IMG/VR virus record: IMGVR_UViG_3300027733_000032
Reading direction: 5' to 3' (one strand)
Source: a virus
Length of the DNA stretch: 64,000 nt
Position numbers and translations under genes: made by a program. Shown in pieces: positions 10,730 through 64,000 of this stretch (positions within the stretch are counted from its first letter, which is position 1; each line of letters opens with the position of its first letter). The notes below the pieces were generated by a model. It had not been told where the DNA came from. It was given only the letters and a program-made list of their open reading frames with translations, and searched no databases.

Positions 10730-10853
10730 ATAGTATACTGAAACTCAATACACTAATTTCAGTAAACTAGACATATTTCCAACATAGTTATCATTAGTTG
10801 CAGAATACTCACACCTACTGAAACTATCATTGTCAATAGACGCTAGGAGAGAT

Positions 10854-12406: not shown

Positions 12407-15400
12407 ATGTCATTTGTTGACATAACAGGAACCGTTGACGCAGATACAGACGGAATAGTGTTTGAAGGCAAGCCCGGTCTTGAACGACCCATAATCCCTA
12501 GATTCCTTGTACCTAAGAATCTTGCTCGCAAAATTTCTTCACTCACCGAAGGCGACGCCCTAGAAATAGAAAAGCAACGACGCAGTGGTGACGGCAATAT
12601 TTCCTTTGACGAAACAAAACTTCGCTCAATTATTGAAAAAATTGGCGGAGACGTCAACTCCTTGAAGCCCGTGGACGATACAGCCGAAACCGGCATGCGT
12701 AGTGCGAACGCCTCAGACGGCCCGGATTTCCAAGAACCACCGATTGCCGATGTACCAGAACAGTTTGATGGTTTCTGGACCCCAGACGAAGAACAATTGC
12801 GCGACCTAGATAAGCGTTCTGGTCGCAGGACACCTCCTCCTCCTCCTGCCAATATCGGGCAGAAGTATGTAATTTCACGGGATGATGATGGCGTTTATTT
12901 TGCGGAGAATATTTCAGCAGAAGATGTTTGGTCGCTTCGTTCCGGTGCATCAAAAGCGCCGAAGCGTCCTTTCTTTGCCCCACGTGGAGGCGGGAATAAG
13001 CCAGATAACGGCGAAGGTTATTACTTCTCTACAAACGGAAAACGCTATTGGGGCAAGTATGGCGCAGCGGGAGCGTTGGTCCGTCGTAAAAATTCAGACG
13101 GAGAATACGAATATTTTCTAGCGAGACGCGCTGATGGTATGTCGGTCGGTGGTGGCAAGTGGTCATTCCCTGGTGGGGCACACAAAGATAAAGAAAATTC
13201 AAAACTTCCAGGTGCTACTGCGATTGAAGAATTTGGCGAAGAGGTTGGTGGAGATATCTCTACACTCAAACCAATTCACACCTACACAGACCAGGTTGCC
13301 CCTGACTGGAAATACGACACTTACGTGTTTGAGGTTGGGCCGGATGAACTGAATGACTTACGGTCGATGGACGGCGAAAGCACTGATACGGGTTGGTTTA
13401 CGGCATCTGACATTATACAAATGGCAGAAGACGACAAACTTCTAGAGTCATTCAAACGTTCAGCAAAAGAAGTATTTGCTCTTTCTGGAGATGAAGTCAA
13501 GGGCAATAAAACTACAAGAAAAATTAAAAAAACATTGAAGAAAATTAGTGGCGAAAAAGTTACTTCTTGGCAAGAAAAGATAAAAAAATACGAACCAATT
13601 GAACCAGAAGATTATTTTGATATCAATAATGAAATGCAGTCTGATTTTGGTATTTCTATTGGCCAAGTGATGCAGGATGAATACGATGAAGGCGCATCTA
13701 TTAAGGAGATTGCGGAAAACTGGGGAATTTCAGCCCATGAAGTTGAAAAATTGCTTAGTGAAAATAAAAAGGGCGGAATGTCATCAACTTCCGTCGGACA
13801 AATCATGCAGGATGAATACGACGAGGGTGCGTCAATAAAAGAAATTGCAGAAAATTGGGATATAACGACTCAAGAAGTTGAAGATTTTATGAGTCGACCA
13901 CCTTCTGTCGGGATGTCATCTGCCAAAACGAATAGAGATTCACGAGGGCGCGACGCAACGCCAGCAAAAAAGAAAAAATTAGACTCCGTTATAGATTTTG
14001 TTATAGACAAAATTAGTCCAGTCACAGTAATCCAAGCATATATAGATTTTTCTGATAGACGACAGGAAAAAAAGAATCCAAGCCTTACGGCTGAACGTCT
14101 TGCAAGAGAAGAAAAAATGAAGTCAGGAGTCGATAAAGCAGGCAAATCAGGCATATCTATTGCTACAAAAATGGCATTACCAGAGTACAAGACGCTTATG
14201 GAGAAAGTTTCCCTAAATGGGGAGACTGTTCTGGCAAGTACATCAGCAAGAACTGCCGAAGTTCAAAAACTTATCGACAATTTGGCATCAAAAGTTGATG
14301 GTGATTTGGATGGAATGGATTTCTCCAAAGGAAACTTCTCTGGCATTGATTTTAAAAATTACTCATTACGTAACGCAAGTTTCTTTGGCTCCACTCTTGA
14401 TAAATCTAATTTTTCTGGATGCATTATTGACAGCGCCACTTTTGAAGATGCTTCTTTAATTGATGCAAATTTAAGCAAGATAAGTCAAGCATGGCGCATC
14501 GATTTCTCGGGAGCGAATCTAACAAATGCAGATTTAACCAAACTCAATATGCACTCCGCTCTATTGAACGAAACAAACCTTGAAGGGGCAAAACTTGATG
14601 GAGTAAATCTAATCATGGCTGACATTAGGGATATGGATTTCTCTAACGCTCGAAGCATGAGGGGTGTCTTGCTAGAAGAAGTACAGGGAGAAGGTGCAAA
14701 CTTTGGTGGTCTCGATATGACCAACTCATCCTTTGTCTCCGCAAACTTGACAAACACTAATTTTAGTAATGCAAATTTAACTCGTTCAGATTTAAGAAAC
14801 GCAAAACTGGATAAGGCTGATTTTAGTGGCGCAAACATGGAGGGTATTGAACTAGAAAAACCAGGTTTATCTCCATCCAGCATGAAAGAAACAAAATTTG
14901 ACAATATGCCGACCAAGGGCGAAGAGGGCACCCCTTCGGGTATGAGTTCCCTTACGCGTCCCTATCGTGATACCAGTGATGAAGAGTTAAAGGCCCTGTA
15001 CGAAAAATATTTACGTTACCTAGGCGGCCCTGGGGACAAGGGTGACAGCGATTTTACATACATGCGACGGTCAAAAGAATATGACAAAATTAAGAAAGAA
15101 ATTGCTCGGCGTGAGAAAGATGGCAAAAAACCAAGCAAGGGAATGAGTTCTGAAACAAAGTTGCCAGGAAATAAAGAAATGCCAGGATTACCAGATGATG
15201 AATTAACATCAAAACTTGATGACAATGTAAATTCGCTCAATGAACTGGAAACTCTTCTTGACGATGGAGAAATTGACCTCGCCGAGTACAGAAAGCGTCA
15301 AATCCCATTACGTAAAGAAGCGGCAGAATTGGGCGCAGAGAAAAAACGTCGGTCTGGTGAAAAGCCAAAAACTGGTGAAACTGGCACTCTAAAAAGAGAA

Positions 15401-22699: not shown

Positions 22700-22761
22700 T
22701 CATAAAATATTATTCATTTGCACTGCTCAATATAGGGTATACTGAAATCACGTAATCAAAT

Positions 22762-24558
22762 ATGGCCAAACAATTCAAATACTTCTGCATGGTGAACCAA
22801 GAAAAGGCTATTATGCCATGTAGTGGTTGTAGTAGCCCCAATGGCTGCCTTTTAAAAACCATGCACTACAAGGAGTCGACAACAATGAACTACGACGAAA
22901 AAGCAATAGTTAAGATTGAAAGCGACGGCAGTGTTGCTAAGTGCGCTAAGGGTCTTGCCGTCAGCGAGTGTGGCTTTAAGGCTGGCTCAAAAGTCTGTGG
23001 CAAGTGTGGTGCCATGCCTGTTCAAATCAAGATGGTTCCTGTTGATGACATGGCAGACGAAGACATGATGGACGAAGAAGACGACATGACCGAGCAGCAG
23101 AAAATGATGATGCGTCGTCGTACTGCTCGCAAGGCTATGGGGATGCCCATGGACGATACGGAAGACGAAGAAACCGTAGCCGAAGACATGGAGTCAATGC
23201 CTGAAGATGAGGAAATGACTAACGGCAAGATGTGGGGCGGAAAGCCGTACCGCAAGGGCATGCGTATGCCTGCATCAGAAATCATGGACGACGAAGACAT
23301 GATGGATGACGAAGAAGACGTGGCTAGCAAGTCGCATGACGACAACATGAAGAGAATGCGTCGTCAAAGAAAAGCAATGGATGCCGCAATGAGCATGGGC
23401 GATGACGAGGATTTGCCAGACGAAGACATGATGGATGATGAAGAAGAAGTCATGGCTACTCCAAAGGGCTACGGTCGTGGTGGTATGCGCTACAAGTTGG
23501 ACGAAGAAGACATGGCCGAAGGTCCAGAAGACGGCATAGATGATGAGGAAGACCTCCTTGAAGGCGACGAAGAGGAAGACATCGTTCCCATGCGTCGCCC
23601 AATGAATGGTCAGACCCCCAGCATGGAAGACCTCCGTATGGCTCGTCTCCGCAAAATGGGCACCAAGTCTGCCGACGTCGGAATTAATGGATACCTCTGT
23701 GCAATTGACCGCAAAGTACATCCAGGTTCAATCTCCGTCTGTGATGACTGCCCAGGTGGCTGCATGGCAGAAAAGGGACTCCCAGGGCTCCTCCACATCG
23801 AAGGTCTCGCAGAAATGATGTTCAAGGGTGACGTTATCGATTCTGGCTACTCACAAGAAGCCGACATGTTCGTTATCGACGTTCAGACTAAGTCTGGCAA
23901 TGTCAATGAGATTTTCATTGATGGAACCACGGCAGAAGTGCTTGGATTCCACCGTCTTGATGACAGCGTTTTTGAACAGAAGTCGCTCATGGACGATATT
24001 CAACTTATCGACTTCAATGAAGCCGCTGAACTTGCCGTGAAGTCGGTTCCTGGAATCGTCGTGGCTGTTGAGCCAAGCGTATTTGAGGGATTTGACGCCT
24101 ATCAAGTAGAAGTGGATGGCTTTGACCAGAAGTCCTATGACGTGTTCGTCGCCCTTGATGGCGAAGTTCTTGGCTGGGATAAGTGGGAGCCTGAAGACAC
24201 CGACCAGATTGAGGCAGAGGCTGCAGAAATTGCACTAAAGAGAGCGTTTCCGGACGACAAGCGTCAAGAAATGGCCAAAGAAGGCACCGCAATGGATGAC
24301 GGTTCTTTCCCAATTGCCAATGAATCTGACCTTCGTAACGCAATCATGTCTCATGGCCGAGCAAAAGATGTCGAGGCAGCAAAAATGCACATCATGAAAC
24401 AAGCCAAGGCAATGGGCAAGGAAGACATGATTCCTGCTGAATGGGTTTCCGGCGGGGAGAAGTCGCTAACTGTCGAAGGCGGTCCCACCGATGAATTCCT
24501 TAAGACTCTTGTTGAGTTTGAATTGCTTTCGGCTGAAGTTGACGAAACCGGTAAGTGA
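22762..24558 (+). CDS. acidic head-associated (scaffold-like) protein with Cys clusters, 2x PepSY-like domains and a protease-associated DGSFPI domain
   Basis: very D/E/M-rich middle; EAAELAVKSVPGIVVAVE...YQVEV...DVFVALDGEVL PepSY pattern; KRQEMAKEG.AMDDGSFPI...DLRNAI..HGRA (DUF6582-like, recalled); real start may be ~22887. Confidence 0.65.
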   Translation: MAKQFKYFCMVNQEKAIMPCSGCSSPNGCLLKTMHYKESTTMNYDEKAIVKIESDGSVAKCAKGLAVSECGFKAGSKVCGKCGAMPVQIKMVPVDDMADEDMMDEEDDMTEQQKMMMRRRTARKAMGMPMDDTEDEETVAEDMESMPEDEEMTNGKMWGGKPYRKGMRMPASEIMDDEDMMDDEEDVASKSHDDNMKRMRRQRKAMDAAMSMGDDEDLPDEDMMDDEEEVMATPKGYGRGGMRYKLDEEDMAEGPEDGIDDEEDLLEGDEEEDIVPMRRPMNGQTPSMEDLRMARLRKMGTKSADVGINGYLCAIDRKVHPGSISVCDDCPGGCMAEKGLPGLLHIEGLAEMMFKGDVIDSGYSQEADMFVIDVQTKSGNVNEIFIDGTTAEVLGFHRLDDSVFEQKSLMDDIQLIDFNEAAELAVKSVPGIVVAVEPSVFEGFDAYQVEVDGFDQKSYDVFVALDGEVLGWDKWEPEDTDQIEAEAAEIALKRAFPDDKRQEMAKEGTAMDDGSFPIANESDLRNAIMSHGRAKDVEAAKMHIMKQAKAMGKEDMIPAEWVSGGEKSLTVEGGPTDEFLKTLVEFELLSAEVDETGK

Positions 24559-24569
24559 CAAAGCAGTAA

Positions 24570-34877: not shown

Positions 34878-35161
34878 TGAAAATGATTTCATCCGATACC
34901 CCTGAATCAACTAGGTACTTCTTTCATGTGCTCAACAATGGGAAGGTTATTGGCCTATTTCGCCTTTATCTCAACCTGGACTACCCGAAGAAAGGCTCCA
35001 AGGGGATTGAGGAAGTTGAATGGAGAAAAGATGAGTGGCTCGCCACCACCGACCTTACTGGTTTTATGATTAACGGCTCCCATGAAATAATGGAAGTCGA
35101 CGAGGAAATAGCACGTTCAAAGTTTCCAAAAGCATTTGATGAAAATGAAGGCACAAAGTGA
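34877..35161 (+). CDS. small protein after the RelA/SpoT domain, candidate immunity protein
   Basis: ATG overlaps the stop of giant 2 (TAATG); aromatic/acidic ~94 aa; arrangement matches MuF-type toxin-immunity pairs. Confidence 0.65.
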   Translation: MKMISSDTPESTRYFFHVLNNGKVIGLFRLYLNLDYPKKGSKGIEEVEWRKDEWLATTDLTGFMINGSHEIMEVDEEIARSKFPKAFDENEGTK

Positions 35162-38753: not shown

Positions 38754-38766
38754 TCATATATAACGA

Positions 38767-39426
38767 GTGGAGAATTATATGGGTGAATACAATATCAAAG
38801 CACCACAGGATGCAATAATCCCAGATATATTTCCTCAGGAACGCATTACTGGAGACATTCTCAAGGGTCATGGTCCGCGTCGTGGCAATCTAGAACGCCT
38901 CCTTCGATACTGGCGTCCAATCATGCGTAAACCAGGTGGCTTTAGGCGGTGCAAGGTCATCCTCGCAGACCATCCTGAATTATTCCCACTAAACAACATT
39001 TGCGCTTGGCTCCACCACGAAACTACGGGATTGTGGCCAAACGAAGGATGCCACCATCCCACCATGAAAAACTGCCGTCGCAAACTAAAAAAAGGCGTAA
39101 ATGGTTCACTTTTCTCAGATTCACAATTCAATAATCGTCTTCGTAAATTAAATGGTCCTGATAAGAAATCAGCAGACGATGTATTTTTTTGGGACGAATG
39201 GAATACAAAAGGTTTACAGCCTTACGAGAATGACGAGAATCCAGTAGTCACTACAGAGGATATAAAACATGCTATTTTAGTATTAGTTGACTTCTCTACA
39301 ATGGAGCCAGACTTCTGTGACTACCTTCGCGACGATTCTCAATGGGATTACGAAGGCGAAATGGACGATGGTGCAATGTTTAAGTCCGCTGTTCCACCAA
39401 GCGAGGATTGTGGATGCGATAAATGA
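38767..39426 (+). CDS. conserved phage head-associated protein (YW..PGGFxRC...CAxLH...GxWP domain)
   Basis: LLRYWR...PGGFRRC...ICAWLHHETTGLWP resembles a domain I recall from actinophage head genes. Confidence 0.6.
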   Translation: MENYMGEYNIKAPQDAIIPDIFPQERITGDILKGHGPRRGNLERLLRYWRPIMRKPGGFRRCKVILADHPELFPLNNICAWLHHETTGLWPNEGCHHPTMKNCRRKLKKGVNGSLFSDSQFNNRLRKLNGPDKKSADDVFFWDEWNTKGLQPYENDENPVVTTEDIKHAILVLVDFSTMEPDFCDYLRDDSQWDYEGEMDDGAMFKSAVPPSEDCGCDK

Positions 39427-44400: not shown

Positions 44401-46714
44401 TCAAGATGTTCTCAATGCCATACAGGCACTTAAAGAAGTCTTTGGTGAGGATTCCGACGTTGGAATTAGCGACCGCGTTGAGTACGCATTAGACTATATC
44501 GCCCCAACATTTGACTCACGCGTTGCATTGAGCGGTGGCGTTCGACGTAGTAGCGGTAGTGTTGCCCCCAATTCAGGCATGGGTTCACGCACTAGTGGCG
44601 CTGTACGACCCGCTGGATTTACTCAGCGTTCACGCACGGCAATGCTGGAAAGAACAGCAATCGGCTCACCAACAGGAATGCGTTCTGCCCGGAAGAGTGC
44701 GCTCTACAAGGCGCATGAGATAAGTCCAGGGCAACAGAGGGCTTCTGCTAATGATGGGCAATTATGGGAAACCCTATCGCCCGCAGATAGGCAGTTATTT
44801 GCCGAAAGGGCACGTGCGCGTGAAAGCGAACTTATCGACATGTTGTTCGACAAGTTTGATATTCCAGTCAATGGAACAGATAGACGTCTTCTTGACGAGA
44901 CGTTGCCAGCAAAAGAACGTGCAAAAATAATGAAACAAACAGGGGGAGGAAATCCGTGGGTTGTCGCAAACCAAGATGCCTATGGTCATTTCCTTCTTGC
45001 AGAAGAAGGGCTTAAGCCTTTATTTTCTGGCGAGTATGGCGTTCAGAAAAAAGCAAAAGAACTAGCCAAGGAAGCGCGTGAGCATCTTGCCAAGGGCGAA
45101 ATAAAAGAACATAAAGAAAAAGTCACAAAACTAACCACCCTTCTGCGTCTATCCGATGACCTGGAGACGCTTAGTGCAGCGCGCATACAGGGAGATGCCG
45201 ATGATTCACTCATTGACAAAAATGACTCATACGACTTCGCCATTGACCATTTACATCCAGTTTCCAAGGCAAGAATTATGGACATTGGCGCAACGACGAC
45301 GACTAAGGGCAAGAACTCTGCCCCAGTGGAGAAAATAAATCCCTATTCAAAGTCTGGCTCGAATAGGCCTTTTGAGTTCAATTTTTCTAAAGCACAAATG
45401 GCTGCAACTTCAACCGCAATCAATGTACCTGGACGTCCATTAAGCGAAAAAGACGACATTCTTCGTTCTGCTGGAGTTCCTGGAGATGACGTCAAGGTAA
45501 AGAAAGCAAGCAGAGTTGGTGGATTACTTGATTTCTTACGTACAAAAACACAAGACCTAAGTAAGGCTGACGAAAAAGCCAAAGAACGCCGAATCAAAAA
45601 GATGCGCCAACAAGGCATAAACATTGGTTCAGTACAGGTTGGCGAGCGAAAGACTGACAGGCCGTCACTCCTTGACAAGCGAGCAATGAAGATAAGCCGT
45701 ATTGCTCGAAAGAAACTACTCAATGCGAAGGCTCGCAAGATGGACGCTCTTGATAAGAGTGCGGCAGGCAACAACGACTCCGTGCCATTAATTGCTTCTG
45801 CTGAGTCTGGTGCAAGAATGCTGACACCAGGTGGCATCCTTGCTCTTTCTAAAGACCTCAAAGTAGGCGAAAGAGAATGGAAAAAGGCCTACAACAGTAA
45901 GGGGCGAAATGACAGCGGACACTCCCTCGCATTTGCATGGGAAGCGGCGGGCATGAATGGAACTCCAAACCCAATTAATGAAGAAGAATATAGCGCACTC
46001 CTTGCTGCCGGTTGGATGCCAATCAAACGTGGAACTGGTGCTCGTGGTTATGCAATTTCGTACATGGACCATCCAAAGCGATTTCTCCCACCCGCTGGCG
46101 AAGCATATGGTCCTGGTGAATACTGGTCAACTGGTCCAAGTACTGCTTGGATTGGAGGGTACTATCCAGACCCAGGCGAACTTGGTGACGGACCAGGAGG
46201 AATTGCTGGCCTACTACCCCCGACCGCCAAAATTATGAAATCTAGCGAACTTAATACCATTCGTGAACAGCATCGTGCGTTTTCTTCACCCATTCTTGGA
46301 AACTTCTCTGGTTATCCAGAGGGAGAATTAGAAAAAACCCCACAACAAGATTTTGTTGACCAATTAGTTAGTGACGTTTTTGGAAAAATTCCACGAGATT
46401 CAGAAGTTTGGGATTCGGCCATTGGAGGAATGACATTGCAGTTAATTAGTGCACTTGAATCGAATCCATCGCCAGAAGAATATAAGAAATTGCGAAATGC
46501 GCTATTCCGCCTAACCACCCTGGTTAATCAACACGAAAACGTTTATGGTCCAATATTTGGTGCTGACGCCCTAGATGTTGGAGGTGATGTAATGTTGCTC
46601 ATGAACCGTGCAGCGGTTTCGGTATTTGCTGACCCACTTCCAGTTGATGAGATTCTTTCACTCTCTCAAGGACGAGGTCTTTCGCCGGGATACGTAGTAC
46701 CAGGACGTAAGTAA
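41453..46714 (+). CDS. giant polyvalent protein 3 (targeting module, KTSC, pentapeptide repeats, C-terminal ART-like domain; 7 GMxS)
   Basis: DADKDGIVFEG ~42190; KTSC 42600-42750; pentapeptide 43300-43880; KRG...GEAYGPGEYW ~46020-46130. Confidence 0.85.
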   Translation: MKNYAILRDAVEEKVFGLVIEKDGGFRFYGADDRAKEWANWANSTSLKSLQEALPVGVIATDKRPLVNDTELFIESLIESASNAGEIKKPTFSYKSSYVTRANSSTPSARDFQLRSFNIDARQNAINFKVYAFKNDQKSSSLMAKIRSAGLGFNEKTGEFRSNDITISHSSLQQNIETTYTKSLQRNIGFNVMAAKNVYAKSLSPFYTHPKVIELKRLGGAIGPKLGRGLRSAPMGMVFVDVTGAIDADKDGIVFEGKPGLERPIIPKFILPEGVGRRVASLIGGAAEQNEKNRRSGANGGGVIDEAKLRSILGTDASSLNKLNAPSPLTDSDNANATGMRSIAGNIRSRRDAIIAKRTGSIDLSRVGRGEKTQLNTGDSRAVEKMTWDDSAKELIVTFAGGRTYTYNNVDDSWVDELEKNPDALGRIMNDIKKAGYDFTSGGTHAPDKTLASRMQGRREAAGMRSARTGNNNPLKQSEVDELFFDNAAWSNDALQFGIDTDSRGNYDIEGNNPLSDVLYREFPGRFNVDEGGRVGVPRQDPEVVFDSSNMSDEELALFTDILAENDPAVLKDFPTSSGTGMSSRKGPDATTKKTNLSETKWKGKRLSDDLLSREDLSGEDLSGANLEGVNLSNKNFTGANLSEANLYEANLQGARLVDADLYAADLIKANLEDANLEGARLEYADLREANLLDANLNGVNLNDAQLGFANLDKVDLGGAKLSGADLTGASLWKANLENVDLSNAYLGNIKYMTNAKLQGANLRDADLRGTDLSMADMTDADLRNVDFTGANLDGAIFSGANLNGTKLDKGWEQSVGMRSSRKPSNNDFDTNRFLPSLADRENYVASDEYEADLEDWLTRFPRKTEADFRRSKTFMENVSMFNPGPDVSEFSREADIYDGWSPEEIDSGLPDTLWRGMSSRTSGLTPEGKRDINDATKKLSDFSRNSAFGDVYPGAEKFDSNKRLHQSISDMFEDADMPSQRVQDVLNAIQALKEVFGEDSDVGISDRVEYALDYIAPTFDSRVALSGGVRRSSGSVAPNSGMGSRTSGAVRPAGFTQRSRTAMLERTAIGSPTGMRSARKSALYKAHEISPGQQRASANDGQLWETLSPADRQLFAERARARESELIDMLFDKFDIPVNGTDRRLLDETLPAKERAKIMKQTGGGNPWVVANQDAYGHFLLAEEGLKPLFSGEYGVQKKAKELAKEAREHLAKGEIKEHKEKVTKLTTLLRLSDDLETLSAARIQGDADDSLIDKNDSYDFAIDHLHPVSKARIMDIGATTTTKGKNSAPVEKINPYSKSGSNRPFEFNFSKAQMAATSTAINVPGRPLSEKDDILRSAGVPGDDVKVKKASRVGGLLDFLRTKTQDLSKADEKAKERRIKKMRQQGINIGSVQVGERKTDRPSLLDKRAMKISRIARKKLLNAKARKMDALDKSAAGNNDSVPLIASAESGARMLTPGGILALSKDLKVGEREWKKAYNSKGRNDSGHSLAFAWEAAGMNGTPNPINEEEYSALLAAGWMPIKRGTGARGYAISYMDHPKRFLPPAGEAYGPGEYWSTGPSTAWIGGYYPDPGELGDGPGGIAGLLPPTAKIMKSSELNTIREQHRAFSSPILGNFSGYPEGELEKTPQQDFVDQLVSDVFGKIPRDSEVWDSAIGGMTLQLISALESNPSPEEYKKLRNALFRLTTLVNQHENVYGPIFGADALDVGGDVMLLMNRAAVSVFADPLPVDEILSLSQGRGLSPGYVVPGRK

Positions 46715-46733
46715 CTAGGACAAGGAAAATAAA

Positions 46734-47072: not shown

Positions 47073-47098
47073 ATATCACTGCTTTAGGTGGATTGAAA

Positions 47099-50000
47099 AT
47101 GGCTGCTCTATCATCGAAAACTATGTCCAAGATGAGGGCATTGCGTCAAGCACAAAAACTTGGTTGCTCTGGTGCTCATCAAATGGACGACGGAGCATGG
47201 CATCCATGTAGTAATCATGACGACTACGTCAGTGCAAAAAAGCGCATTCAGTCATCGTCCGTAATAGGGACTCCCCCACAACGAGATGCTCGTGGTTCTA
47301 ATAAGATTAAAAAACAGTGGGAAACTCTAGGACAACGACCAATATCTGCAATTGACAATATCCAGGGTGGTGGCATTGTCGCCGGAGCGCCGTCTGCGCT
47401 TATTGGTGGAGGAATGGGCACAAAGTCCCTCGGGTGGGCGCCCAACGATAATGACCCAGATGTATTTAGCGATGTAGAAGTGGCGCGTAATAGGTCTCGT
47501 CAATTGGGATGTATCGGTGTTAGTCGAAGAATTTCTCGTGGTGGCAAGACTGTCTGGATGCCATGTACCAACATGAGCGACTATGCCCGCCTTGCCGGAA
47601 CCACATCCCTTGGGCGTCGCCATATGCGCCAAGCAGCAGAACGAACAATCACTGAGGCTTTCAAGAAGTTAAAACCAAAGCCCAAACGCGAGCGAAGTAA
47701 ATCGCTATTTTCTGAACTCCACCTAGAAACACACAAGAAAGTTCTAGCAGCGCAAGTTAATGGCGCACAGGTTGCTGAGATGGAATTTAAAGGACTTGGG
47801 CCAAAATTAGGAAGAGGCCTACGGTCCGCCCCTCCCGGTATGGTGTTTATCGACGTCACAGGAGCAATTGACGCCGACAAAGACGGAATTGTTTTTGAAG
47901 GGAAGCCGCTCGAAAGACCTATTATTCCAAGATTCACTATTCCTGAAAGTCTTGCAGGGCGTGTTTCTAAACTTATGGAAGGAACCGCTGAGCAAAACGA
48001 AAAGAATAGGCGTCTCAGCAGTGACCCTATGGCTGGCGCGATTACTGAACGTGATGTTCAAAATTTAGTTAGCAATCTTGGAGTTGGCTCATCTGGATTA
48101 TCTAGTAGTCGACGAACAAGAGAGTGGGCAGAAAATACCGTACTTACTCCAGGAGTTCTTCCTCCAGTTGATGCTGGAGTTTCAATACCCAAGAAGTTTG
48201 TCAGAGCGGCTAAAGGTACAGTCAGGGCAAGAACTTGGCCAATGCGTAACGTTTCTGGAAAATATGAGAATAACAGTAACGAGCAACTGAAGTGGCTGGT
48301 TGATGACAACGTCATATCTAGCCCTGGCACGCTTCGTACTGCTCTAGAAAAAAGCCCCTACTTGGTTGGGTCACCAAAAAATCTTTCACGACGCATTGAG
48401 GACGCAGAAATTGATTACGATGCTGGTCAACAACTTGCTCGGTCATTAAAAGACCAAATCGACACAAATCCTGCGGTAGCGAATTTTATTCGGAGATATG
48501 GTCTTCCGGTCATGGTTGTGACAAACCATCAACCCAACACTGAAACTGCAAACTTTGGTCCGACCTCATGGATGTCAACAATGGCTGGGTGGGCGCCTCA
48601 GGGCTTCATAGGTTTTAATGCGGCAACCTTCCCAAGTTCTTCATTCTATGCAAACGGCGGACATCGTGACACTGACAATGTCATGAACATGCGACACGAA
48701 TTGGCCCATGCATGGGAAACAATGGCCGCCAAAACAAACGATAAAGCAAAAGAACATTACATTGCACAATTTGCTGAAATGTTTCAAGGTCTGCAAGAAA
48801 TTGAAGACAGAGGAGAAGCAACATTCAGAACTTCTTATCACGAGGCCGCATGGGGAACTGATGACGAGCATGAATCGGCATTAAGAATAAGCAACTATGC
48901 GGAAACTGCTCGCATTGAATGGTTTGCCGAAGCATTCGCCCATGCGACTGATGGCGATGCAAACAATCGCAACAGAGTGGACAATCTCTCAAAGCAAAAT
49001 ATGGCAGCGGTTCTTGGTTTAGATATGTGGGAATTGGAATCAATGCTCGGTGGGAATGGCTTCTCTTCTTTTGATGACGACCCATTCTCTGGGGGTATGG
49101 CTTCATCGCAAAGATTTGGAAATTCGATTTTCCCATCATCAGATAATTTAGACTCGAAAGAATATGTTGATTGGCTAAATCAAAATCCTGGATATATTGA
49201 CGATGCTCCATTAGAGATGCTGTTGCGAACAGGCTCTGAATCACTTAACGAAAATCGTCGCATGGGCATGCGCTCGTCCACGGGCCTACTAGGCAAAGAC
49301 GAACAACGCGCACGAGCAATAATTTTCGACAGGGTAGATAAAAGCAAACTTGGCAAACAGCAACCCACATATCATCACGTTGGGGGCATCCCTGGTTCGG
49401 GTAAATCTACACTAGTCACTACTGGGGTTCTTGGTGTACCAAATAGTAACAACGCTTTTCATATTGACCCAGATGAGATAAAAACACACATGGACGGGTG
49501 GGGTGGTGGGCGTGGCGCTCAAGCCTTGCACCCACGCTCACGACGCTTGACCGACCTATTTATGGCCGAAGCGGCAGAATCGCATGGAGATGTTGTCGTT
49601 CAAGGAATAGGCAAACGAACAGAACATCTTGCAATGATGCGTGATGCTGGATACAGAACTGTTGGCCATTTTGTCTACGTCCCATCCAAGGAAGCGGATG
49701 CAAATATTAGCAAGCGTGCGGAGAATGGCGGAGCAATTCTTGGTAATGGATATGGTAGTCACATATCGGATGAGTTGCGTTCACGAGGAACTATTTCCAG
49801 ACAAATAACGTCTGGTCTTTATGACGAATTTTATCTTTGGGATAATACTGGGCGCACTCCGAAAATTGCTGCAGAACGCCGCCAGGATGGGACATTCATT
49901 ATTCATGACCAAAAAGTTTGGGATAAGTTTTTTGGGGACAAGAAGTATGGCGCTGGTTCATTGAGTAATGCCGAATGGGCAAAACAATACTTTGAAGAGA

Positions 50001-53000
50001 GAATGCCAGAATCTGGCGGAATGAGTTCCAGCAGGGGCGTTCGAAGAAATTCAATATCGCTAAATTCAGTAAATAATATTCTTGAAAATTCAAATTTCTT
50101 GCCGGATATATCGGCAAAAGAAGATGCTCGTTTATTGAACGGTCTACTCAAACGAGATAATGGCCGCACTTTACTAAGCGACCACAAGTTGGAAAATATG
50201 GATGTATCAAACCTCTACATCTCATTTCCTGAATTTAATAACGTTGACATCGAGAATTGCGACATAACAAATGGCGTGATGTCTAATGGAACTTTTATAA
50301 ACCTATCCGCTAGAGACATAGACATGACGAACGGAGACTTCTCTCATTCATTTTTTGCCAATTCATCCATTGATGGCTCTTATCTGGCTGGTTCAAATTT
50401 CTCAAATAGTATCATCGTTGGGAATTTGTCTCTAAAAAATACAGACCTTCGTGGTGCAAATCTATCAAATTTAACTTTCTCTGACGAAAACGGATATGCG
50501 ACTATTGACCTAGAGGGCTCCATGCTTGATGGTGCCTACTTAGGGAACACTGACCTGACCCGATTAGTCGCCAATGAGAATACTGAATGGGGCGACGTAA
50601 ACGTTGGATACATGAACTCTACAATACCGCGCAGTCTTCGTTCTGAAGGACTTAAGGAAGAAGAAAGACTCAACTCGCTCCACCTTATGGGCGCAGGAGA
50701 AATACATGGGGCATTCAATGATGCACTTATAGATGTCAACTCCTCTAAGGACAAAGCCACAAAAATTAGTGCGCTCAACAATATTGATGCCATACATTCT
50801 CATCTTTCTGGTATTAACACAGAACTGATGACAATGGAGGATGACCGACGACTCACTCTTGAAAGATTTAATTCAACAACATCGCAATTGCTCTCGATGA
50901 AAAACAGTAAATTGAGCGACGGTTCTTTAATTAACCCAGTCAAATTTATTGAATCTAACGATATTGCAGGATGGGTAAAAGAAGTCAATTCGACCAGAGA
51001 GAAAAATCCATCAGCGTTTAAGGATATGCCTCCGAATAAGTTATTGGCAGATGCATCGCAGATACACAGAGAGCAACAAATATTACTTGATTCTTTAAAT
51101 AAGTTTGACTCTGAAATATCTGAGGCAAAACAAAAACAAACTCTTCTTTCTTCTATTAACGCAATATTGTTTGCAGATAAAGACAATGTTTTTGGTACAA
51201 AATTAACAATTCCAAAAAAAGCAAATCGTGTTAAATCAAATCGAGCCCATATTGCTACAGTGCGGGAACAGGTTTCCAATAACACAATCAAAGACAACAG
51301 AAATGATTTGAACCCGCGAGCCGTAAAGATGCTCAAGCAATTTAGTGGAATTGTTGCGGGCGATACCGTCGGTATGCGGTCAGCCAAGGCAACAAATGAC
51401 AGCAAAAAAGCAGAAGACAAAATTGAAGAAATGTATTCAAAATTGTCAGACGCAATACTTGCCTCGCTGGATGAAGCAGACGGGGACAAATGGGTTAGGC
51501 CATGGAACCTAGGGGCTCTGCTTCCCCGAAATGCGAAGACCAAACAGGCCTATCGTGGTTCCAATATATTTAATCTTGGAATAACGCAAACAGATTCTAA
51601 CCATACGCACCCAATGTGGGGCACATACAAGATGTGGCAAGAACTTGGTGGTCAAGTTCAAAAGGGCGAACGTGGGACAATTATTGTCCATTGGTCATCA
51701 ATGGAGAAAGAGATTATTGGTCCAAACGGGACAATAGAAACACGTAGGTACATGAGACCGCGACTCCACAATGTTTTTAATATTGACCAAGTGTCTGGCG
51801 TCGACCCAGAAAAGTATGCGCTACCGGTTCTTAGCGATGAACAACGAGTTCAGCGCATGGACTCCATAATTGAAGAACTTGGGGCCACGATTCGTGAGTC
51901 AACGAATATGCCAACTAGAAATGGCGGATTTGGTCTGCGTGCTTTTTACAATCCAACAGATGACTCCATAAGTCTGCCCCCATTCTCCACATTCACTGAG
52001 CCGCTTGGCTATTACCAGACGGCGATGCATGAACTTGTTCACTGGACCGGGCATAGTCAGCGACTCAATAGGCTTGATATGAATGAGTTTGGTAATCAGG
52101 ACTACGCGTACGAAGAGTTAGTGGCTGAATTTGGTTCAGCCTTTCTTATGGGCGTGCTTGGTATGGAAGCAGAACCGCAGCAAAACCACTCTGAATACAT
52201 CAAGGGTTGGAAGAGAAAAATAAAAGATGACCCAGATACTGTCAAGAATGCTATCTCGGATGCGCAAAAAGCCGTAAATTACATCCTCAATAACTCACCG
52301 ACATTTCGCGATGAAAATGGAATGAATGATGTGAATTCTGATGCAATTGATTCTGATGGAACCCTTCCTGTTGCTGAGGAAATGGGTGACATTGTAAAAA
52401 ATATAGTATCCCCATCAAGTGATGTCCCTGGTCTAATTTCTCCTGGTCGCGATATGGTCGGCATGCGTTCTAAAATAGTTTCTGAATGGCTGGATGTAAC
52501 TGCTCATGATTCATTTGGTGAAGCGGGTTCAGAATTACGAAATACTTTTGGGCGGACAGACTTGGAAAAGTTGCAGAAAGTATTGCAAGACGAAAAATCC
52601 GTTTTATCAAAAACTATTGATGAATGGCAAAAAACAGGCATATGGAATGGGGAAACAAATGGCGTCGCATTGCCACGAACGCAATATCCAAAAAAAGGCA
52701 TAACCCGAAATATCTCAGCAGAAGAATCAAGCGGGATGGGCGACAAGGACGCTTTGGGTTCCATATTTAATGGCTATCTATCTCAAATTGAAAAACAACT
52801 CGAACACGTAAACGACCGAATTGCCAATTTGGACAGAATGGAAAACGATGGAGATATTGCACATATAAATGCAATATCAATCGTTGACCTACCAAATTTT
52901 GCAGCCCTCGCCGAACGTGGTAAGCAAATAAGAGAATCACGTGGCTCGATGGAGGACAGGGCATGGTCGTTAACTAAAGACGACCCCGATGCGACGTGGT

Positions 53001-56000
53001 TGGTTCATACTGGCGTACCAGTACTTGACGGTGGCGTTCTTGACCCATCATTCACGCTGCCCAAGGGCGGCGATGGGACTTATGCACGTCAAGGCATGGA
53101 TACTCAGAGGCTCAATGCCATAACCCGAAACAGTATCATCAACCGCTACGAGGAGGCGGAGCAGGATTTGAACGCTTATCAACTTGCGTTGAAAGAATAT
53201 GATGAAACTGGAGTTTGGGATGGGCCAAAGTTGGCTCAAAACACAAGAGTTCCAGGTAGGGATATTGGTCATAGGGACTATGGCACCTACATAGAAGGCC
53301 AAGATGATGAACGCATTAATCCTGAATATTTAAGAGATTTGGCGCGTCGCTATATTGATAATGGGAAAATAGTAATGGCTCGGTATGAATATGCTTATCC
53401 GCTAGCAAAAGCAGGAAAAGAACATCTCAGTTACAGCCATGTATCACAAGGACCTAGTACTGGATATGTACGCAACGACTTCCCAACAAGTAAAACATAT
53501 CTCGTAAGAGTCCCCAAGACAGAAGTAGTGGAAGGGTTTCCGTCTCAGGAATATCAAATTTTTGGGGTCAGAACACCAATAGCAAGTTTTGAAGTACCCA
53601 ATCAGTTCAATTCTCCCAATGTGTACGAAGCACAGGACGCTGCTATTGCTCTATTTGAGCAGGCCGCACAGAAATATGTTTCAAAAGATAAATTGCCATC
53701 CGGGATGCTTTCTCGTCGTGATTTGATTTCACTGCATGGGAAAACACTCCAAGAAGTACTAAATGCATTAGAGATTGACGATGCCGAAAGCATGCGCGGC
53801 TTTGAGGAATTAGAAACAGCAATTGACAAACTTGACGACCGTAAAATAAGAAAAGCCCCATTTCATCCAGCGGTGAAAGATTCGGTCAATGACATTATTG
53901 ATTCAATTGCAGTCAGCGTATCTTCTGATGGAATCATAATGCTTCATTCAAAACCAAATCCAATATTTCAAAAAGAATACCCAGTTCAACGAGACTGGAG
54001 ACTGATTGAATTAACAAAACCAGAAAATGTTGAAGCAGCCTTAAAGAAGGCATTGGAAAATCAATTTACAACAAAAGAAGATGGTGAATGGATTAACTAC
54101 TACTCCCCTGCGGGAGAATTAGTGGCGCGTAAACGCTATACGGGAGAAACTGGAAATCCGGAGTCAATAGAAGGTATGTATAATGTCGCAGAATGGGAGA
54201 TATTGGATGAGAAATACGCCGATATTCTTGGTGGCGACGGTGGTGAGTTGTCAAGATTTGAAGATTTTTTAAGAAATTTACTTAAAAAACTTTCCAAAGG
54301 CAGTCGGGTTAGTCCTGTGAAAGCAATAGAGCGTATTCCAATAAACAATTTATTTGTAGGTTCTTTTCTTGCTTCATTAATTAATCCAGAGGCAGGAGAC
54401 ATGGGCGGTCGAGATGGATTGCATGATGCCTTCGGTCATTTTGCTATGGGCAGGGGTGTCGATAGGCATGGCGAGTGGGCAAATGCTCTTGCAATAATGT
54501 CATTAGTTGACCATCCTGATTTTGATGCAACCCCAGCAGAAAGGAATGCTGTAAAACAAGCATGGTTTGGCGAATACGGTTTATATTTTATTACCAACTT
54601 CAATGAAGATGTAACAATGGAGCCGTCGGAACTTTGGGGCGCAATAGCCAATTATGTAGGAAATTTTGATGACATTTTAAAAATTTTAGATGATTCTCCA
54701 CGTTCCTCTAGTGGCATGTCATCGCGCTCGATGCCAATTGGTCGGGTGAGTGACTTAATGCTTAGGGAAATATCGGACCAAGAAATTTTGCACAATAAGA
54801 AACGTGCCCTAATTATTCGTGCACAGAATAATCCCGGCGTTCTTTCTAGTTCAGAAGATTACAGAATGTCACATACCGCTCCACTGCGTGATGCTGGGGC
54901 GCCATTAAGCGACCTGACAGGAAACGGGATATACCCAGAAGACGTATATACGGATGATGGTTACAGAATGTATAGCCACGGGCAGATGTTGCTGAATAGC
55001 AAGATGTTCAAGTTGATTAAAGACATGCGCGGAAAGCCCGAGAAGGAAATAACCATCTATCGCGCTGTTCCCAAGAATGTTGGCGATGATATAAATGCAG
55101 GTGATTGGGTTTCTCCGTTACGCGAATACGCCCAATATCACGGCGAATCCAATCTTGATGGGGATTACAAGATTGTTTCTAAGAAAGTCAAAGCCGGAGA
55201 AATCTTTACCGAAGGTAATTCATGGCTGGAATGGGGCTACTCTCCTTCTGACGACAGCAGAACTGGAATGTCTTCTGTCATGACGCCAACAAGACCAACG
55301 ATTCCACCGCCTCCCGGAGCGCCAACAGGACAGGCAATTCAGAAGCCAGAAATAACACCATCAACCAGGCCAACATTGTCGTTGACTCAAGAGGCCGTCG
55401 AGGCCATTGAAGATTTCAGAAACGCTATTAAGGTCGACAGCAATGACCCTTACACGTTGAACGGGTCGTCTTTTGTGGGCCAACTTGACGGCATCTTTGC
55501 ACAAACATTTTTATCAGATTTGCCAGAAGGACATAACATCCTCATAAGAGATGTCCCGATTACGAGCAAGACAAAGGCAATTCCCTACGCCGTTGCAACA
55601 AAAATCAATGGAGCATTAGTTGTTAAGCAAATTACGCAAGAAACATACGACTATCTCTACAGAGTACGAAAACTTGATAAACGATTGCATCAACAGAACA
55701 ATATAAGTTCCTTGGAGCAAATGAACCTAAAAGCAATTGAATACGAAATAGCAAATATTGCAGAACTTTCAAAAAAATACAAAATGAAAGTGCCTCAACT
55801 TTTATTAATAGACGCAGCAAATGAAAACGATAAATTTTCGCAAGAAAAATATGGTAATCCAAACTTTGTTTCTGCCGCAACAATGAGTGCTAATGGAGTA
55901 ATGACGGTTTATAACGGCGCTCTGCCGAGCGTCCATACTCTGCGTCACGAATGGGGTCATTCTTTTGACAGGGTCGCTGAACGAATTTCAGAAGATGCCG

Positions 56001-56914
56001 GAGGAATATTTGGAATCATAAAGCAGTGGCATCATGAAAAAATATCGGACGGCGTAGCATGGAGAAACGCCTCGGATGGGGATAAAAGAACTTCACAAGA
56101 ATGGAAAAATGAGTTTCTTGGCAAAGGTTGGACTATTAAGTTTGTGAGCAGGCGTTTTACTGCGGGAACAGATGGGGTTACTCCGTATGCCCAAACAGCG
56201 TATGATGCTGGCGAATATACTCTGATTGAAGATTTTGCTGAATCTGTAGCATTATTCCTAATCGATAGAGAAAAAGGTTATATTGGTAAAAAATTTAACG
56301 AAAATGGCATGGAGCGCGGGAATGTCAGATTTGCAACCCTCTATCCAAAGCGAGCCGAAATTCTTACTGCGCTCTTTGACCAGTCAGACGATTGGATGCG
56401 AAGCCCACAAGGAATGTCATCCAAAACCAAGAACTTTGATAGCCGTTTTGAGAAGAAGTATGGGCAAGTAAACCCAGACGGAGATGGGGATTGCTATTCT
56501 GCCGCTTTTGAATTAGCCCAAAAACTAACCAACAGATTTAGCAAAGAAGAAGGAACGGAAGTCAAAGTCGTGCATGGCATACCCCTCGGAACTGGTGGTG
56601 AGGCTGCTGGCATCAGGTATGGACATGCCTGGGTTGAAGTCGACAGGACGGCAGGAGAGATTCTGCGTCTCAATGAAAAACTACGTGTTGCCAAAACGGA
56701 GTCAGAAAAGGCTCGCATTGAGTCAAATATCAGACAGGTGCGCTTGATGGGCGAAGCAACGGTCTACGATTACTCCAATGGCGGGAAACATGAAATTCCA
56801 AAATTCTTGTACTACGCAATGGGGAATATCGACGAATCAGAAACTCGACGCTATTCAGTTGATGAGTCAAGGAAGTACGCCCTCGACACCAAGCACTACG
56901 GACCATGGAAATAA
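47099..56914 (+). CDS. giant polyvalent protein 4 (2x DUF3721-like, zincins, zeta toxin-like, pentapeptide, ArdC+MPTase, ART-like, papain/transglutaminase-like; 9 GMxS)
   Basis: LGCxG...PC x2; HELAH ~48695; GGIPGSGKST..IDPDEIK ~49380; WVRPW..YRGSN..GGQVQKGE..HELVHWTGH..YAYEELVAE; IYRAVP..GDWV..EWGY; HEWGH; DCY..GHAWVE; ATG at 47099 (track TTG 47093). Confidence 0.87.
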   Translation: MAALSSKTMSKMRALRQAQKLGCSGAHQMDDGAWHPCSNHDDYVSAKKRIQSSSVIGTPPQRDARGSNKIKKQWETLGQRPISAIDNIQGGGIVAGAPSALIGGGMGTKSLGWAPNDNDPDVFSDVEVARNRSRQLGCIGVSRRISRGGKTVWMPCTNMSDYARLAGTTSLGRRHMRQAAERTITEAFKKLKPKPKRERSKSLFSELHLETHKKVLAAQVNGAQVAEMEFKGLGPKLGRGLRSAPPGMVFIDVTGAIDADKDGIVFEGKPLERPIIPRFTIPESLAGRVSKLMEGTAEQNEKNRRLSSDPMAGAITERDVQNLVSNLGVGSSGLSSSRRTREWAENTVLTPGVLPPVDAGVSIPKKFVRAAKGTVRARTWPMRNVSGKYENNSNEQLKWLVDDNVISSPGTLRTALEKSPYLVGSPKNLSRRIEDAEIDYDAGQQLARSLKDQIDTNPAVANFIRRYGLPVMVVTNHQPNTETANFGPTSWMSTMAGWAPQGFIGFNAATFPSSSFYANGGHRDTDNVMNMRHELAHAWETMAAKTNDKAKEHYIAQFAEMFQGLQEIEDRGEATFRTSYHEAAWGTDDEHESALRISNYAETARIEWFAEAFAHATDGDANNRNRVDNLSKQNMAAVLGLDMWELESMLGGNGFSSFDDDPFSGGMASSQRFGNSIFPSSDNLDSKEYVDWLNQNPGYIDDAPLEMLLRTGSESLNENRRMGMRSSTGLLGKDEQRARAIIFDRVDKSKLGKQQPTYHHVGGIPGSGKSTLVTTGVLGVPNSNNAFHIDPDEIKTHMDGWGGGRGAQALHPRSRRLTDLFMAEAAESHGDVVVQGIGKRTEHLAMMRDAGYRTVGHFVYVPSKEADANISKRAENGGAILGNGYGSHISDELRSRGTISRQITSGLYDEFYLWDNTGRTPKIAAERRQDGTFIIHDQKVWDKFFGDKKYGAGSLSNAEWAKQYFEERMPESGGMSSSRGVRRNSISLNSVNNILENSNFLPDISAKEDARLLNGLLKRDNGRTLLSDHKLENMDVSNLYISFPEFNNVDIENCDITNGVMSNGTFINLSARDIDMTNGDFSHSFFANSSIDGSYLAGSNFSNSIIVGNLSLKNTDLRGANLSNLTFSDENGYATIDLEGSMLDGAYLGNTDLTRLVANENTEWGDVNVGYMNSTIPRSLRSEGLKEEERLNSLHLMGAGEIHGAFNDALIDVNSSKDKATKISALNNIDAIHSHLSGINTELMTMEDDRRLTLERFNSTTSQLLSMKNSKLSDGSLINPVKFIESNDIAGWVKEVNSTREKNPSAFKDMPPNKLLADASQIHREQQILLDSLNKFDSEISEAKQKQTLLSSINAILFADKDNVFGTKLTIPKKANRVKSNRAHIATVREQVSNNTIKDNRNDLNPRAVKMLKQFSGIVAGDTVGMRSAKATNDSKKAEDKIEEMYSKLSDAILASLDEADGDKWVRPWNLGALLPRNAKTKQAYRGSNIFNLGITQTDSNHTHPMWGTYKMWQELGGQVQKGERGTIIVHWSSMEKEIIGPNGTIETRRYMRPRLHNVFNIDQVSGVDPEKYALPVLSDEQRVQRMDSIIEELGATIRESTNMPTRNGGFGLRAFYNPTDDSISLPPFSTFTEPLGYYQTAMHELVHWTGHSQRLNRLDMNEFGNQDYAYEELVAEFGSAFLMGVLGMEAEPQQNHSEYIKGWKRKIKDDPDTVKNAISDAQKAVNYILNNSPTFRDENGMNDVNSDAIDSDGTLPVAEEMGDIVKNIVSPSSDVPGLISPGRDMVGMRSKIVSEWLDVTAHDSFGEAGSELRNTFGRTDLEKLQKVLQDEKSVLSKTIDEWQKTGIWNGETNGVALPRTQYPKKGITRNISAEESSGMGDKDALGSIFNGYLSQIEKQLEHVNDRIANLDRMENDGDIAHINAISIVDLPNFAALAERGKQIRESRGSMEDRAWSLTKDDPDATWLVHTGVPVLDGGVLDPSFTLPKGGDGTYARQGMDTQRLNAITRNSIINRYEEAEQDLNAYQLALKEYDETGVWDGPKLAQNTRVPGRDIGHRDYGTYIEGQDDERINPEYLRDLARRYIDNGKIVMARYEYAYPLAKAGKEHLSYSHVSQGPSTGYVRNDFPTSKTYLVRVPKTEVVEGFPSQEYQIFGVRTPIASFEVPNQFNSPNVYEAQDAAIALFEQAAQKYVSKDKLPSGMLSRRDLISLHGKTLQEVLNALEIDDAESMRGFEELETAIDKLDDRKIRKAPFHPAVKDSVNDIIDSIAVSVSSDGIIMLHSKPNPIFQKEYPVQRDWRLIELTKPENVEAALKKALENQFTTKEDGEWINYYSPAGELVARKRYTGETGNPESIEGMYNVAEWEILDEKYADILGGDGGELSRFEDFLRNLLKKLSKGSRVSPVKAIERIPINNLFVGSFLASLINPEAGDMGGRDGLHDAFGHFAMGRGVDRHGEWANALAIMSLVDHPDFDATPAERNAVKQAWFGEYGLYFITNFNEDVTMEPSELWGAIANYVGNFDDILKILDDSPRSSSGMSSRSMPIGRVSDLMLREISDQEILHNKKRALIIRAQNNPGVLSSSEDYRMSHTAPLRDAGAPLSDLTGNGIYPEDVYTDDGYRMYSHGQMLLNSKMFKLIKDMRGKPEKEITIYRAVPKNVGDDINAGDWVSPLREYAQYHGESNLDGDYKIVSKKVKAGEIFTEGNSWLEWGYSPSDDSRTGMSSVMTPTRPTIPPPPGAPTGQAIQKPEITPSTRPTLSLTQEAVEAIEDFRNAIKVDSNDPYTLNGSSFVGQLDGIFAQTFLSDLPEGHNILIRDVPITSKTKAIPYAVATKINGALVVKQITQETYDYLYRVRKLDKRLHQQNNISSLEQMNLKAIEYEIANIAELSKKYKMKVPQLLLIDAANENDKFSQEKYGNPNFVSAATMSANGVMTVYNGALPSVHTLRHEWGHSFDRVAERISEDAGGIFGIIKQWHHEKISDGVAWRNASDGDKRTSQEWKNEFLGKGWTIKFVSRRFTAGTDGVTPYAQTAYDAGEYTLIEDFAESVALFLIDREKGYIGKKFNENGMERGNVRFATLYPKRAEILTALFDQSDDWMRSPQGMSSKTKNFDSRFEKKYGQVNPDGDGDCYSAAFELAQKLTNRFSKEEGTEVKVVHGIPLGTGGEAAGIRYGHAWVEVDRTAGEILRLNEKLRVAKTESEKARIESNIRQVRLMGEATVYDYSNGGKHEIPKFLYYAMGNIDESETRRYSVDESRKYALDTKHYGPWK

Positions 56915-63977: not shown

Positions 63978-64000
63978 GAGTATGGATTGACCAACACATT

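Follow-up and report, generated by a model that had tools for sequence, protein, structure and literature searches.

The window analysed here is a 64,000-nucleotide stretch of IMG/VR virus record IMGVR_UViG_3300027733_000032, from an uncultured phage with a genome of ~150 kb, and it encodes five giant proteins whose unrelated domains are joined at a recurring four-residue motif, Gly-Met-x-Ser (GMxS). The motif is strongly enriched in these proteins, lies in linkers, bounds modules that are gained and lost as units, and is rewritten in concert from one related lineage to the next, and the first giant is joined to the S78 prohead protease, in frame in many relatives and by a predicted frameshift in the window. 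A preliminary description of the window had proposed that these proteins are polyproteins divided into effector cassettes at GMxS, and comparative evidence, indirect throughout, gives the polyprotein reading good support. We regard as about evenly balanced the more specific proposal that the five giants are cargo loaded into the capsid and that GMxS is a processing site cut by the S78 protease.

The 44.5 kb between the protease and capsid genes contain five very large open reading frames (ORFs) and a few small ones. The five are listed below with the lengths of their products in amino acids (aa) and the position of the Gly codon of each GMxS site.

12407..22699, plus strand: giant 1, 3430 aa from its ATG and ~3956 aa as a frameshift fusion; 17 GMxS (12692, 13775, 13910, 14939, 15140, 15584, 16349, 16709, 17303, 18065, 18623, 19223, 20564, 20639, 21434, 22250, 22268)
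24570..34877, plus strand: giant 2, 3435 aa; 7 GMxS (27870, 29724, 30327, 30624, 32088, 33672, 34074)
35158..38370, plus strand: 1070-aa putative cargo protein; 2 GMxS (35791, 37765); HExxH at residue 572
41453..46714, plus strand: giant 3, 1753 aa, with KTSC and pentapeptide modules; 7 GMxS (42467, 42839, 43193, 43901, 44201, 44576, 44675)
47093..56914, plus strand: giant 4, 3273 aa, with DUF3721, Zeta, pentapeptide, ArdC-N + MPTase and further HExxH modules; 9 GMxS (49094, 49265, 50018, 51371, 52460, 53702, 54713, 55265, 56411)

Enrichment of GMxS in the giant proteins

Together the five proteins (12,961 aa) carry 42 GMxS sites, compared with 2.36 expected from their composition. Shuffling of whole proteins (n = 2000) gave a mean of 2.4 sites and a maximum of 9, and shuffling inside 30-aa blocks gave a mean of 2.9 and a maximum of 10, in agreement with the two to three chance occurrences estimated in the preliminary description. 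Every Gly codon listed there was reproduced, and two sites of giant 2 (27870 and 29724) had been omitted from it. GM.S is the commonest gapped three-of-four word in the giants, with 42 occurrences versus 19 for the next. The third position of the motif is S, R or A at 36 of the 42 sites, and the two positions that follow it favour R/S/K and then T/R/S/K. Elsewhere in the window, GMxS occurs once each in the portal protein, the protease-scaffold protein and a 106-aa ORF, and a scan of the window found none in the capsid protein, the terminase or two conserved proteins of 598 and 677 aa, consistent with the earlier statement that the motif is nearly absent from portal, capsid and terminase (1, 0 and 0).

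The 42 sites are encoded by 39 distinct 12-mers that use all four Gly codons and all six Ser codons, as had been noted for the Gly codons and both Ser codon families, and this variety points to selection at the level of the peptide. A DNA repeat or recombination site is ruled out by the same 39 distinct 12-mers, and a low-complexity artefact by the block shuffles, which reach a mean of only 2.9. Five sites have no counterpart in relatives (residues 1101 and 1719 of giant 2, 870 of the 1070-aa protein, and 339 and 817 of giant 3), the two in giant 2 falling in a region that can be aligned across lineages. These five are probably chance occurrences, their number being near the two to three expected.

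The motif lies in linkers between unrelated modules

The sequence surrounding the sites has the character of a flexible linker. Within 12 residues on either side, the hydrophobic fraction is 0.20 versus 0.28 at random positions (p from 1e-7 to 1e-12 for the flank tests), the residues S/G/P/T/R/K make up 0.53 versus 0.39, and the linkers are basic. An AlphaFold2 model of giant 4 residues 668-1799 (67 sequences) has a mean predicted local distance difference test score (pLDDT) of 69.6 and consists of confident domains split by segments with pLDDT below 50. These segments make up 24% of the model and contain all five of the sites in the modelled stretch, for which the chance probability is about 8 in 10,000. 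No site falls within any Pfam match, as expected if the motifs lie in disordered linkers and not in folded domains.

The giants contain a range of unrelated domains, with NUDIX, pentapeptide, KTSC, Zeta, ArdC-N, MPTase and DUF3721 identified by Pfam and an alarmone synthetase by PDB sequence search:

34074..34874, plus strand: small alarmone synthetase (RelA/SpoT-type) module, beginning at a GMRS site; PDB 8vx3 SaSAS, E 4.1e-14

The Pfam matches to NUDIX, pentapeptide (two), KTSC, Zeta and ArdC-N + MPTase are all bounded by consecutive sites. For these and for the RelA/SpoT-type domain, the preliminary description's placement of recognisable domains between motifs was confirmed. The zincin that it placed at 55265-56411 is plausible, with an HExxH at giant 4 residue 2952, and its kinase, ART-like and papain-like modules, which gave no match in Pfam or in the PDB sequence search, are unconfirmed. 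Five HExxH domains occur in the giants, namely the giant 2 zincin and four more including the MPTase. Stand-alone ArdC proteins of ~300 aa align to giant 4 residues ~1446-1735, within the module that the sites at 1427 and 1790 delimit. The combination of several unrelated domains in one polypeptide, encoded among virion genes, supports the earlier assignment of the giants to the large polyvalent proteins that carry conflict domains, and the location of the sites supports GMxS as a marker of module boundaries in flexible linkers.

Giant 2 differs in layout along its length. Residues 1 to ~1900 (24570-30300) align across lineages and are without conserved sites. This part looks like a large fixed core containing the zincin, to which variable modules have been appended. 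The core includes an invariant Cys-Pro-Pro-Gly...Cys segment at residues 204-226. No match to the N-terminal part of giant 2 was found by Foldseek against the PDB (E <= 0.001), in Pfam or in the PDB sequence search.

Modules are exchanged at the motif

The sites also mark where modules begin and end in evolution. A 71-aa module is present as one copy in giant 1 and as two tandem copies in giant 2, and in all three copies the conserved sequence begins at the residue after the Ser (of GMSS, GMRS and a degenerate GRGS). When the giants were compared with their orthologues in two relatives (L001 and L002), whole modules were found inserted or lost with breakpoints at the motif, including modules missing in L002 and, in L001, a 41-aa helix-turn-helix (HTH)-like unit inserted between SMSS and GMSS. 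Across the window, L001 and L002 orthologues, the Gly and Ser of the motif have a conservation of 0.76, versus 0.24-0.47 for the flanks. In a lineage of 57% identity (G004) the modules are reordered, and matching segments start 0-25 residues past a site in both partners. Giant 4 residues 1790-2204, for instance, correspond to G004 residues 930-1337, with sites at both ends in both phages.

The HTH-like unit is a mini-module of 41-45 aa with weak matches to HTH domains and sigma-70 region 3, and it occurs as a single copy in giant 1 (window 13775-13910). The L001 giant has a second copy at residues ~1440-1480, at the site equivalent to 1435, where the window has a tandem scar, SMSS-G-GMSS.

The motif is recoded from lineage to lineage

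The preliminary description had named conservation in related contigs as a check, and the pattern does recur at equivalent positions in related phages, in variants particular to each lineage. Each lineage has its own giants in a matching layout and uses one variant of the motif throughout them: G-[MFLV]-R-S-R in G004 (44 GM.S, 52 G.RS), S-S-R-S-x-R in G002 (26 RS.R), R-G-L-x-S-[S/E]-T in G005 (16 GL.S[S/E]T) and S-S-R-S in L003. Where linkers can be aligned, a GMRS of the window stands opposite SSRSKR or GLRSST at the equivalent place (GMRSST = GLRSST), and close relatives with proteases 62-86% identical already differ in their word. If one trans-acting reader served all the sites of a genome, the motif would be expected to change in concert throughout its unrelated modules, and such a reader is implied by these comparisons.

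The pattern extends well beyond these lineages. A search with the protease-scaffold-junction part of L009 returned at least 281 proteins of 2000-5700 aa with an S78 head and polyvalent cargo, and among the 120 fusion proteins listed, most combine S78 with ArdC-N, MPTase, UvrD, sigma-70 region 4, KTSC, pentapeptide or exonuclease domains. De novo word enrichment in the cargo parts of S78 fusion proteins yielded, with few exceptions, a word of the type (G)-[M/F/L]-[A/S/R]-S, with GM.S, G.RS, GFAS, GLAS, [LF]SSG[RK] and SRS as variants. A GFAQ word is found in giants without a visible S78 domain. Two contigs (L060 and L061, carrying the giants P0027 and P0046, respectively) have ArdC/MPTase giants behind a ferritin-like gene, with DUF5824 also present in L060. 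In this contig group the word of one giant is G-F-A-Q rather than G-F-A-S, and a second giant lacks any enriched word; the ArdC giants of P0027 (motif-free) and P0046 (motif-bearing) both stand beside the ferritin-like gene, with no S78 in their short visible flanks.

A predicted frameshift joins giant 1 to the prohead protease

Giant 1 appears to be translationally fused to the S78 protease-scaffold protein by a -1 ribosomal frameshift, predicted from the features of the junction and of the modules that follow it:

10830..12314, plus strand: prohead serine protease (S78, residues ~30-185) with scaffold-like C-terminal part; zero-frame product 494 aa; Pfam Peptidase_S78 46.9 bits (cut-off 21), PHROG head maturation protease
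12293..12299, plus strand: slippery heptamer A_AAA_AAA, predicted -1 frameshift joining protease-scaffold to giant 1; open conserved -1 frame
12307..12349, plus strand: hairpin predicted by folding, 8-bp stem GCCCTTAG/CTAAGGGC, with the protease stop codon buried in it
12407..12694, plus strand: putative junction/targeting module copy 1 (giant 1 residues 1-96), ending at the first GMxS; homology to giants 3 and 4
41996..42478, plus strand: putative junction/targeting module copy 2 (giant 3 residues 182-342), with GLRS before it at residue 229; matches residues 438-591 of the G004 protease fusion protein
47729..48070, plus strand: putative junction/targeting module copy 3 (giant 4 residues 213-326), with GLRS before it at 242 and GLSS after it at 335

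The protease ORF ends at 12314 and the giant 1 ATG is at 12407, and from the seven consecutive A residues at 12293-12299 onward the -1 frame has no stop codon. The heptamer fits the X_XXY_YYZ pattern (zero-frame reading TCA AAA AAA), and the -1 frame upstream of the ATG encodes residues that are conserved in the window, L001, L002 and L003. Other relatives (L004, L009, L010, L014, L020 and others) carry the junction within a single ORF of 1182-4433 aa, and the shifted product of the window aligns without a break across the junction with these in-frame fusions. The hairpin lies 7 nt past the slippery site, within the 5-9 nt spacer range for such elements. The 78-nt stretch of the window that contains it folds at -21.7 kcal/mol, with a z-score of only -1.9. 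In L003 a hairpin with another sequence stands at the same spacing, and the 78-nt stretch that contains it has a z-score of -3.5.

The module that follows the scaffold-like part (~100-160 aa) recurs in giants 3 and 4, with GLRS before it and the first site after it. Residues 1-96 of giant 1 are homologous to residues 237-342 of giant 3 and 250-307 of giant 4, and the module follows the protease in all relatives. From this distribution, a role as a capsid-targeting element is plausible. The module contains a segment, D-x-D-x-D-G-x-x-F-[DE]-G, that resembles a calcium-binding loop and is kept even where the proteases are 45% identical.

Candidate readers of the motif

In the mechanism that we propose, the -1 frameshift at A_AAA_AAA would fuse giant 1 to the S78 protease-scaffold and so bring it into the procapsid, and giants 3 and 4 would be brought in by their own copies of the post-scaffold module. 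Within the procapsid the S78 protease would cut at GMxS, most likely after the invariant Ser, which would place Met at P3 and Gly at P4; a cut before the Ser is the alternative. The products would be up to ~45 fragments with a median of ~210 aa, including the NUDIX, pentapeptide, Zeta, ArdC, alarmone synthetase and zincin modules, and these could leave through the tail together with the DNA. In favour of the S78 protease is its junction with the cargo. Its domain has His72, Ser136, Glu159 and Glu162 invariant in 17 relatives, and His72 and Ser136 are the candidate catalytic residues. As weak evidence, the three motif classes have different residues at position 131, which lies five positions ahead of Ser136. 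Five adjacent positions of the motif are conserved, the hydrophobic residue standing two places ahead of the invariant one, and in this the motif resembles the P4-P1' cleavage logos of T4 gp21 (I/LxE; PMC12991175) and SPN3US gp245 (V-A-x-E↓S; PMC10052503).

Several observations weigh against the S78 protease as the reader. Giant 2 and the 1070-aa protein have no recognisable copy of the shared putative targeting module. The S78 domains are 72-97% identical across lineages with markedly different motifs, and because of this few residues are left to explain a change of specificity. A search of the N-terminal linker of the capsid protein for the motif found none. Upstream of the window (G000:C1:77309-82325; locus L062), a tail assembly chaperone gene (PHROG 5088) precedes an ORF of 1439 aa, rich in Gly and Ala, that presumably encodes the tape measure protein. 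This protein has GMxS at residues 615 and 633 (p = 0.09 for two or more by chance), and relatives have motif-like words of their lineage type near the same place. If real, these sites should be beyond the reach of a prohead protease. Finally, all four lineages also encode a conserved zincin that could serve as the enzyme just as readily.

A serious rival, though clearly less probable than the S78 reading, is that a zinc metalloprotease carried in the cargo itself reads GMxS. It would split the bond that joins the Gly to the hydrophobic residue, with the latter at P1', and it could act either within the capsid or once injected, the second as Iyer et al. 2017 proposed for MPTase. The candidates are the giant 2 domain that resembles thermolysin and lethal factor, and the giant 4 MPTase:

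25500..26729, plus strand: zincin-like domain of giant 2 (residues 311-720; HExxH at 568-572); conserved HExxH
51914..52255, plus strand: MPTase-PolyVal zincin within the giant 4 ArdC module; Pfam PF18818, 8.2e-35

The giant 2 HExxH is present in all four lineages, with His568, Glu569 and His572 nearly invariant in 22 homologues, and the domain evolves fast (27-36% identity), as does the motif. Its AlphaFold2 model is nearest to site-specific zincins, with the best match to the catalytic domain of anthrax lethal factor (Z 6.9) and the next to PPEP and thermolysin (Z 4.2-4.5; PPEP 4.4, thermolysin 4.5), but these matches are weak, all below Z 8. Most lineages have M, F or L at motif position 2, which fits the S1' pocket of a zincin, but the SSRS lineages have Ser there, and the residue conserved most widely across lineages is the Ser three positions past the putative cut, which is unusual for zincins. 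An injected zincin could also get to the tape measure protein, and processing of polyvalent proteins by MPTase has been proposed (PMC5512222). The P0027 giant, however, has ArdC + MPTase and no enriched word, and P0002, P0028 and P0030 are likewise without one.

We think it improbable that the motif is left uncut and that the giants act intact. In that case it would be a conserved element between modules, either a hinge or a peptide for docking, that might bind a chaperone, help the chain to pack against DNA or the capsid wall, or assist its threading through the tail. The evidence for cutting is all indirect, the basic linkers could bind DNA, and N4 vRNAP, ArdC and TraC1 are delivered uncut (PMC5512222). 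Passive linkers, however, need no invariant core of three to four residues and would not be expected to be recoded in concert over 16-66 sites in unrelated modules. A docking reader could account for this, but it has no candidate, and each 3400-aa protein would need to exit the capsid as one uninterrupted chain. Least probable by far is cleavage by a host protease after injection, with the code mirroring host specificity and not that of the phage: variants do differ by phage lineage and lineages may have different hosts, but relatives with 62-86% identical proteases already use different words, the phage encodes at least six peptidase-like domains in its cargo module, and we know of no general bacterial endoprotease with GMxS specificity.

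Comparison with known systems

The nearest precedent for the giants is the set of polyvalent proteins described by Iyer et al. 2017 (PMC5512222), which compared such proteins with viral polyproteins processed by embedded peptidases, predicted that embedded peptidases release their domains and proposed autoprocessing by MPTase. Like those proteins, the giants adjoin virion genes and carry ArdC-N, MPTase, Zeta, RelA/SpoT and other conflict domains. Assemblin-like peptidases were reported there to be rare and always C-terminal, and no site motif was described, whereas here an S78 peptidase is N-terminal, joined by frameshift or in frame, and one word recurs at the joints. A literature text search linking polyvalent proteins with a prohead protease returned only that paper and an unrelated preprint.

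The preliminary description stated that no shared cleavage code of this kind was known for a phage, which was overstated. A head protease with one code for many substrates is already known from T4 gp21 (I/LxE) and from phiKZ and SPN3US (AXE; PMC10052503). In T4, the internal proteins IPI-III and Alt are procapsid cargo with a targeting sequence that is cut by gp21 at I/L-x-E, and they are injected with the DNA. There, one N-terminal targeting peptide is removed per protein, in contrast to the up to 17 cuts per chain proposed here between unrelated enzymes, and both the protease family (here S78, HK97-type) and the motif are different. In phiKZ, 201phi2-1 and SPN3US (gp175, gp245; PMC10052503, PMC5694885) many head and ejection proteins share one consensus, A-x-E with Val at P4 and Ser at P1', and some propeptides are cut more than once. 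These are mostly N-terminal propeptides removed from separate gene products, unlike the present case, and those phages have neither an effector polyprotein nor a protease fusion.

Other systems share single features with the giants. Effector domains are carried into the capsid on a head-assembly protein in MuF-fused phage toxins and effectors, but the carrier is MuF/gp7 and not a protease-scaffold, there is usually one effector, and joints are not repeated. Herpesvirus assemblin is made as a protease-scaffold fusion and cuts (V/L/I)-x-A↓S. It is like the S78 protease in having the same fold, in its fusion to a scaffold and in a hydrophobic-x-small pattern next to Ser, but the hydrophobic spacing is different, and it processes nothing beyond itself and the scaffold, with no cargo. 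Polyproteins of RNA viruses (3C protease, Q↓G sites) also hold many functions in one chain with a short consensus for a viral protease and a word that varies by lineage; their domains and protease are unrelated to those described here, and they serve gene expression and not virion cargo. Four aspects of the present case are new. The scale is large, with up to 17 joints in one chain and 42 in the genome; the code is used to set unrelated effector modules apart; S78 is fused N-terminally to cargo, in frameshift or in-frame versions; and the motif is rewritten between lineages.

Implications

A tentative picture, in which we place slightly less than even confidence, is that of a large group of uncultured phages (~150 kb), possibly of Actinobacteria, in which about one third of the genome consists of plug-and-play effector modules that are loaded into the capsid by fusion to S78 and released at a Gly-hydrophobic-x-Ser code rewritten together with its reader in each lineage. 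If this is true, the amount loaded would be set by in-frame fusion or by -1 frameshift, each module between sites would be an independently evolving injected protein, and the mature injected proteome could be read from sequence. Should the joints be cut, five opaque giant genes would become a parts list of up to ~45 virion-delivered proteins, most without a known family and each a candidate anti-defence or host-takeover factor. The same picture would tie polyvalent proteins to the capsid maturation pathway, with the protease-cargo fusion as a loading mechanism, and would offer a natural case in which a substrate code and its reader evolve together. The pattern is seen in hundreds of metagenomic proteins, so it would represent a widespread and undescribed phage strategy, and the modular, motif-bounded design could inform engineered protein delivery by phage capsids.

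Genomic context

The genes run in the order large terminase (minus strand), portal, S78 prohead protease with its scaffold-like tail, cargo block and HK97-fold capsid. The giants are located among these virion genes, from portal/protease to capsid, in a layout that is identical in four related contigs; the whole protease-to-capsid interval was compared for three relatives (G004, G002 and G005), each with the layout of the window. The remaining features of this region are as follows:

8699..10729, plus strand: portal protein; PHROG portal 6.8e-62, Pfam Phage_portal 1.1e-45
22762..24558, plus strand: 598-aa conserved protein, motif-free; ends 52-78% identical in three other lineages
39423..41456, plus strand: 677-aa conserved protein, motif-free, its stop overlapping the giant 3 start; 41-55% identity over full length in three lineages
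57587..58897, plus strand: major capsid protein, HK97 fold, motif-free; Pfam Phage_capsid 1e-43, PHROG major head protein

A search for cultured relatives found none, the best phage capsid match being 47% identical, to capsid proteins of Gordonia and Brevibacterium phages. The relatives compared are fragments of 54-125 kb, and the 125-kb fragment is an estimated ~84% complete. A 63.2-kb part of the window matches a 90-kb contig, and the last 787 bases (63214-64000) lie outside it, which indicates that the source record is longer or was assembled differently.

The 598-aa and 677-aa proteins are present in all four lineages (41-78% identity), each directly upstream of a giant. Neither has a match to a Pfam family or a PHROG, and the 677-aa protein gave only chance-level matches in the ESM Atlas. 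Directly after the capsid gene, a 741-aa protein at 59714-61939 contains DUF6321 (1.3e-28), a domain that is also present in some of the protease-fusion giants (P0202, P0220 and P0231).

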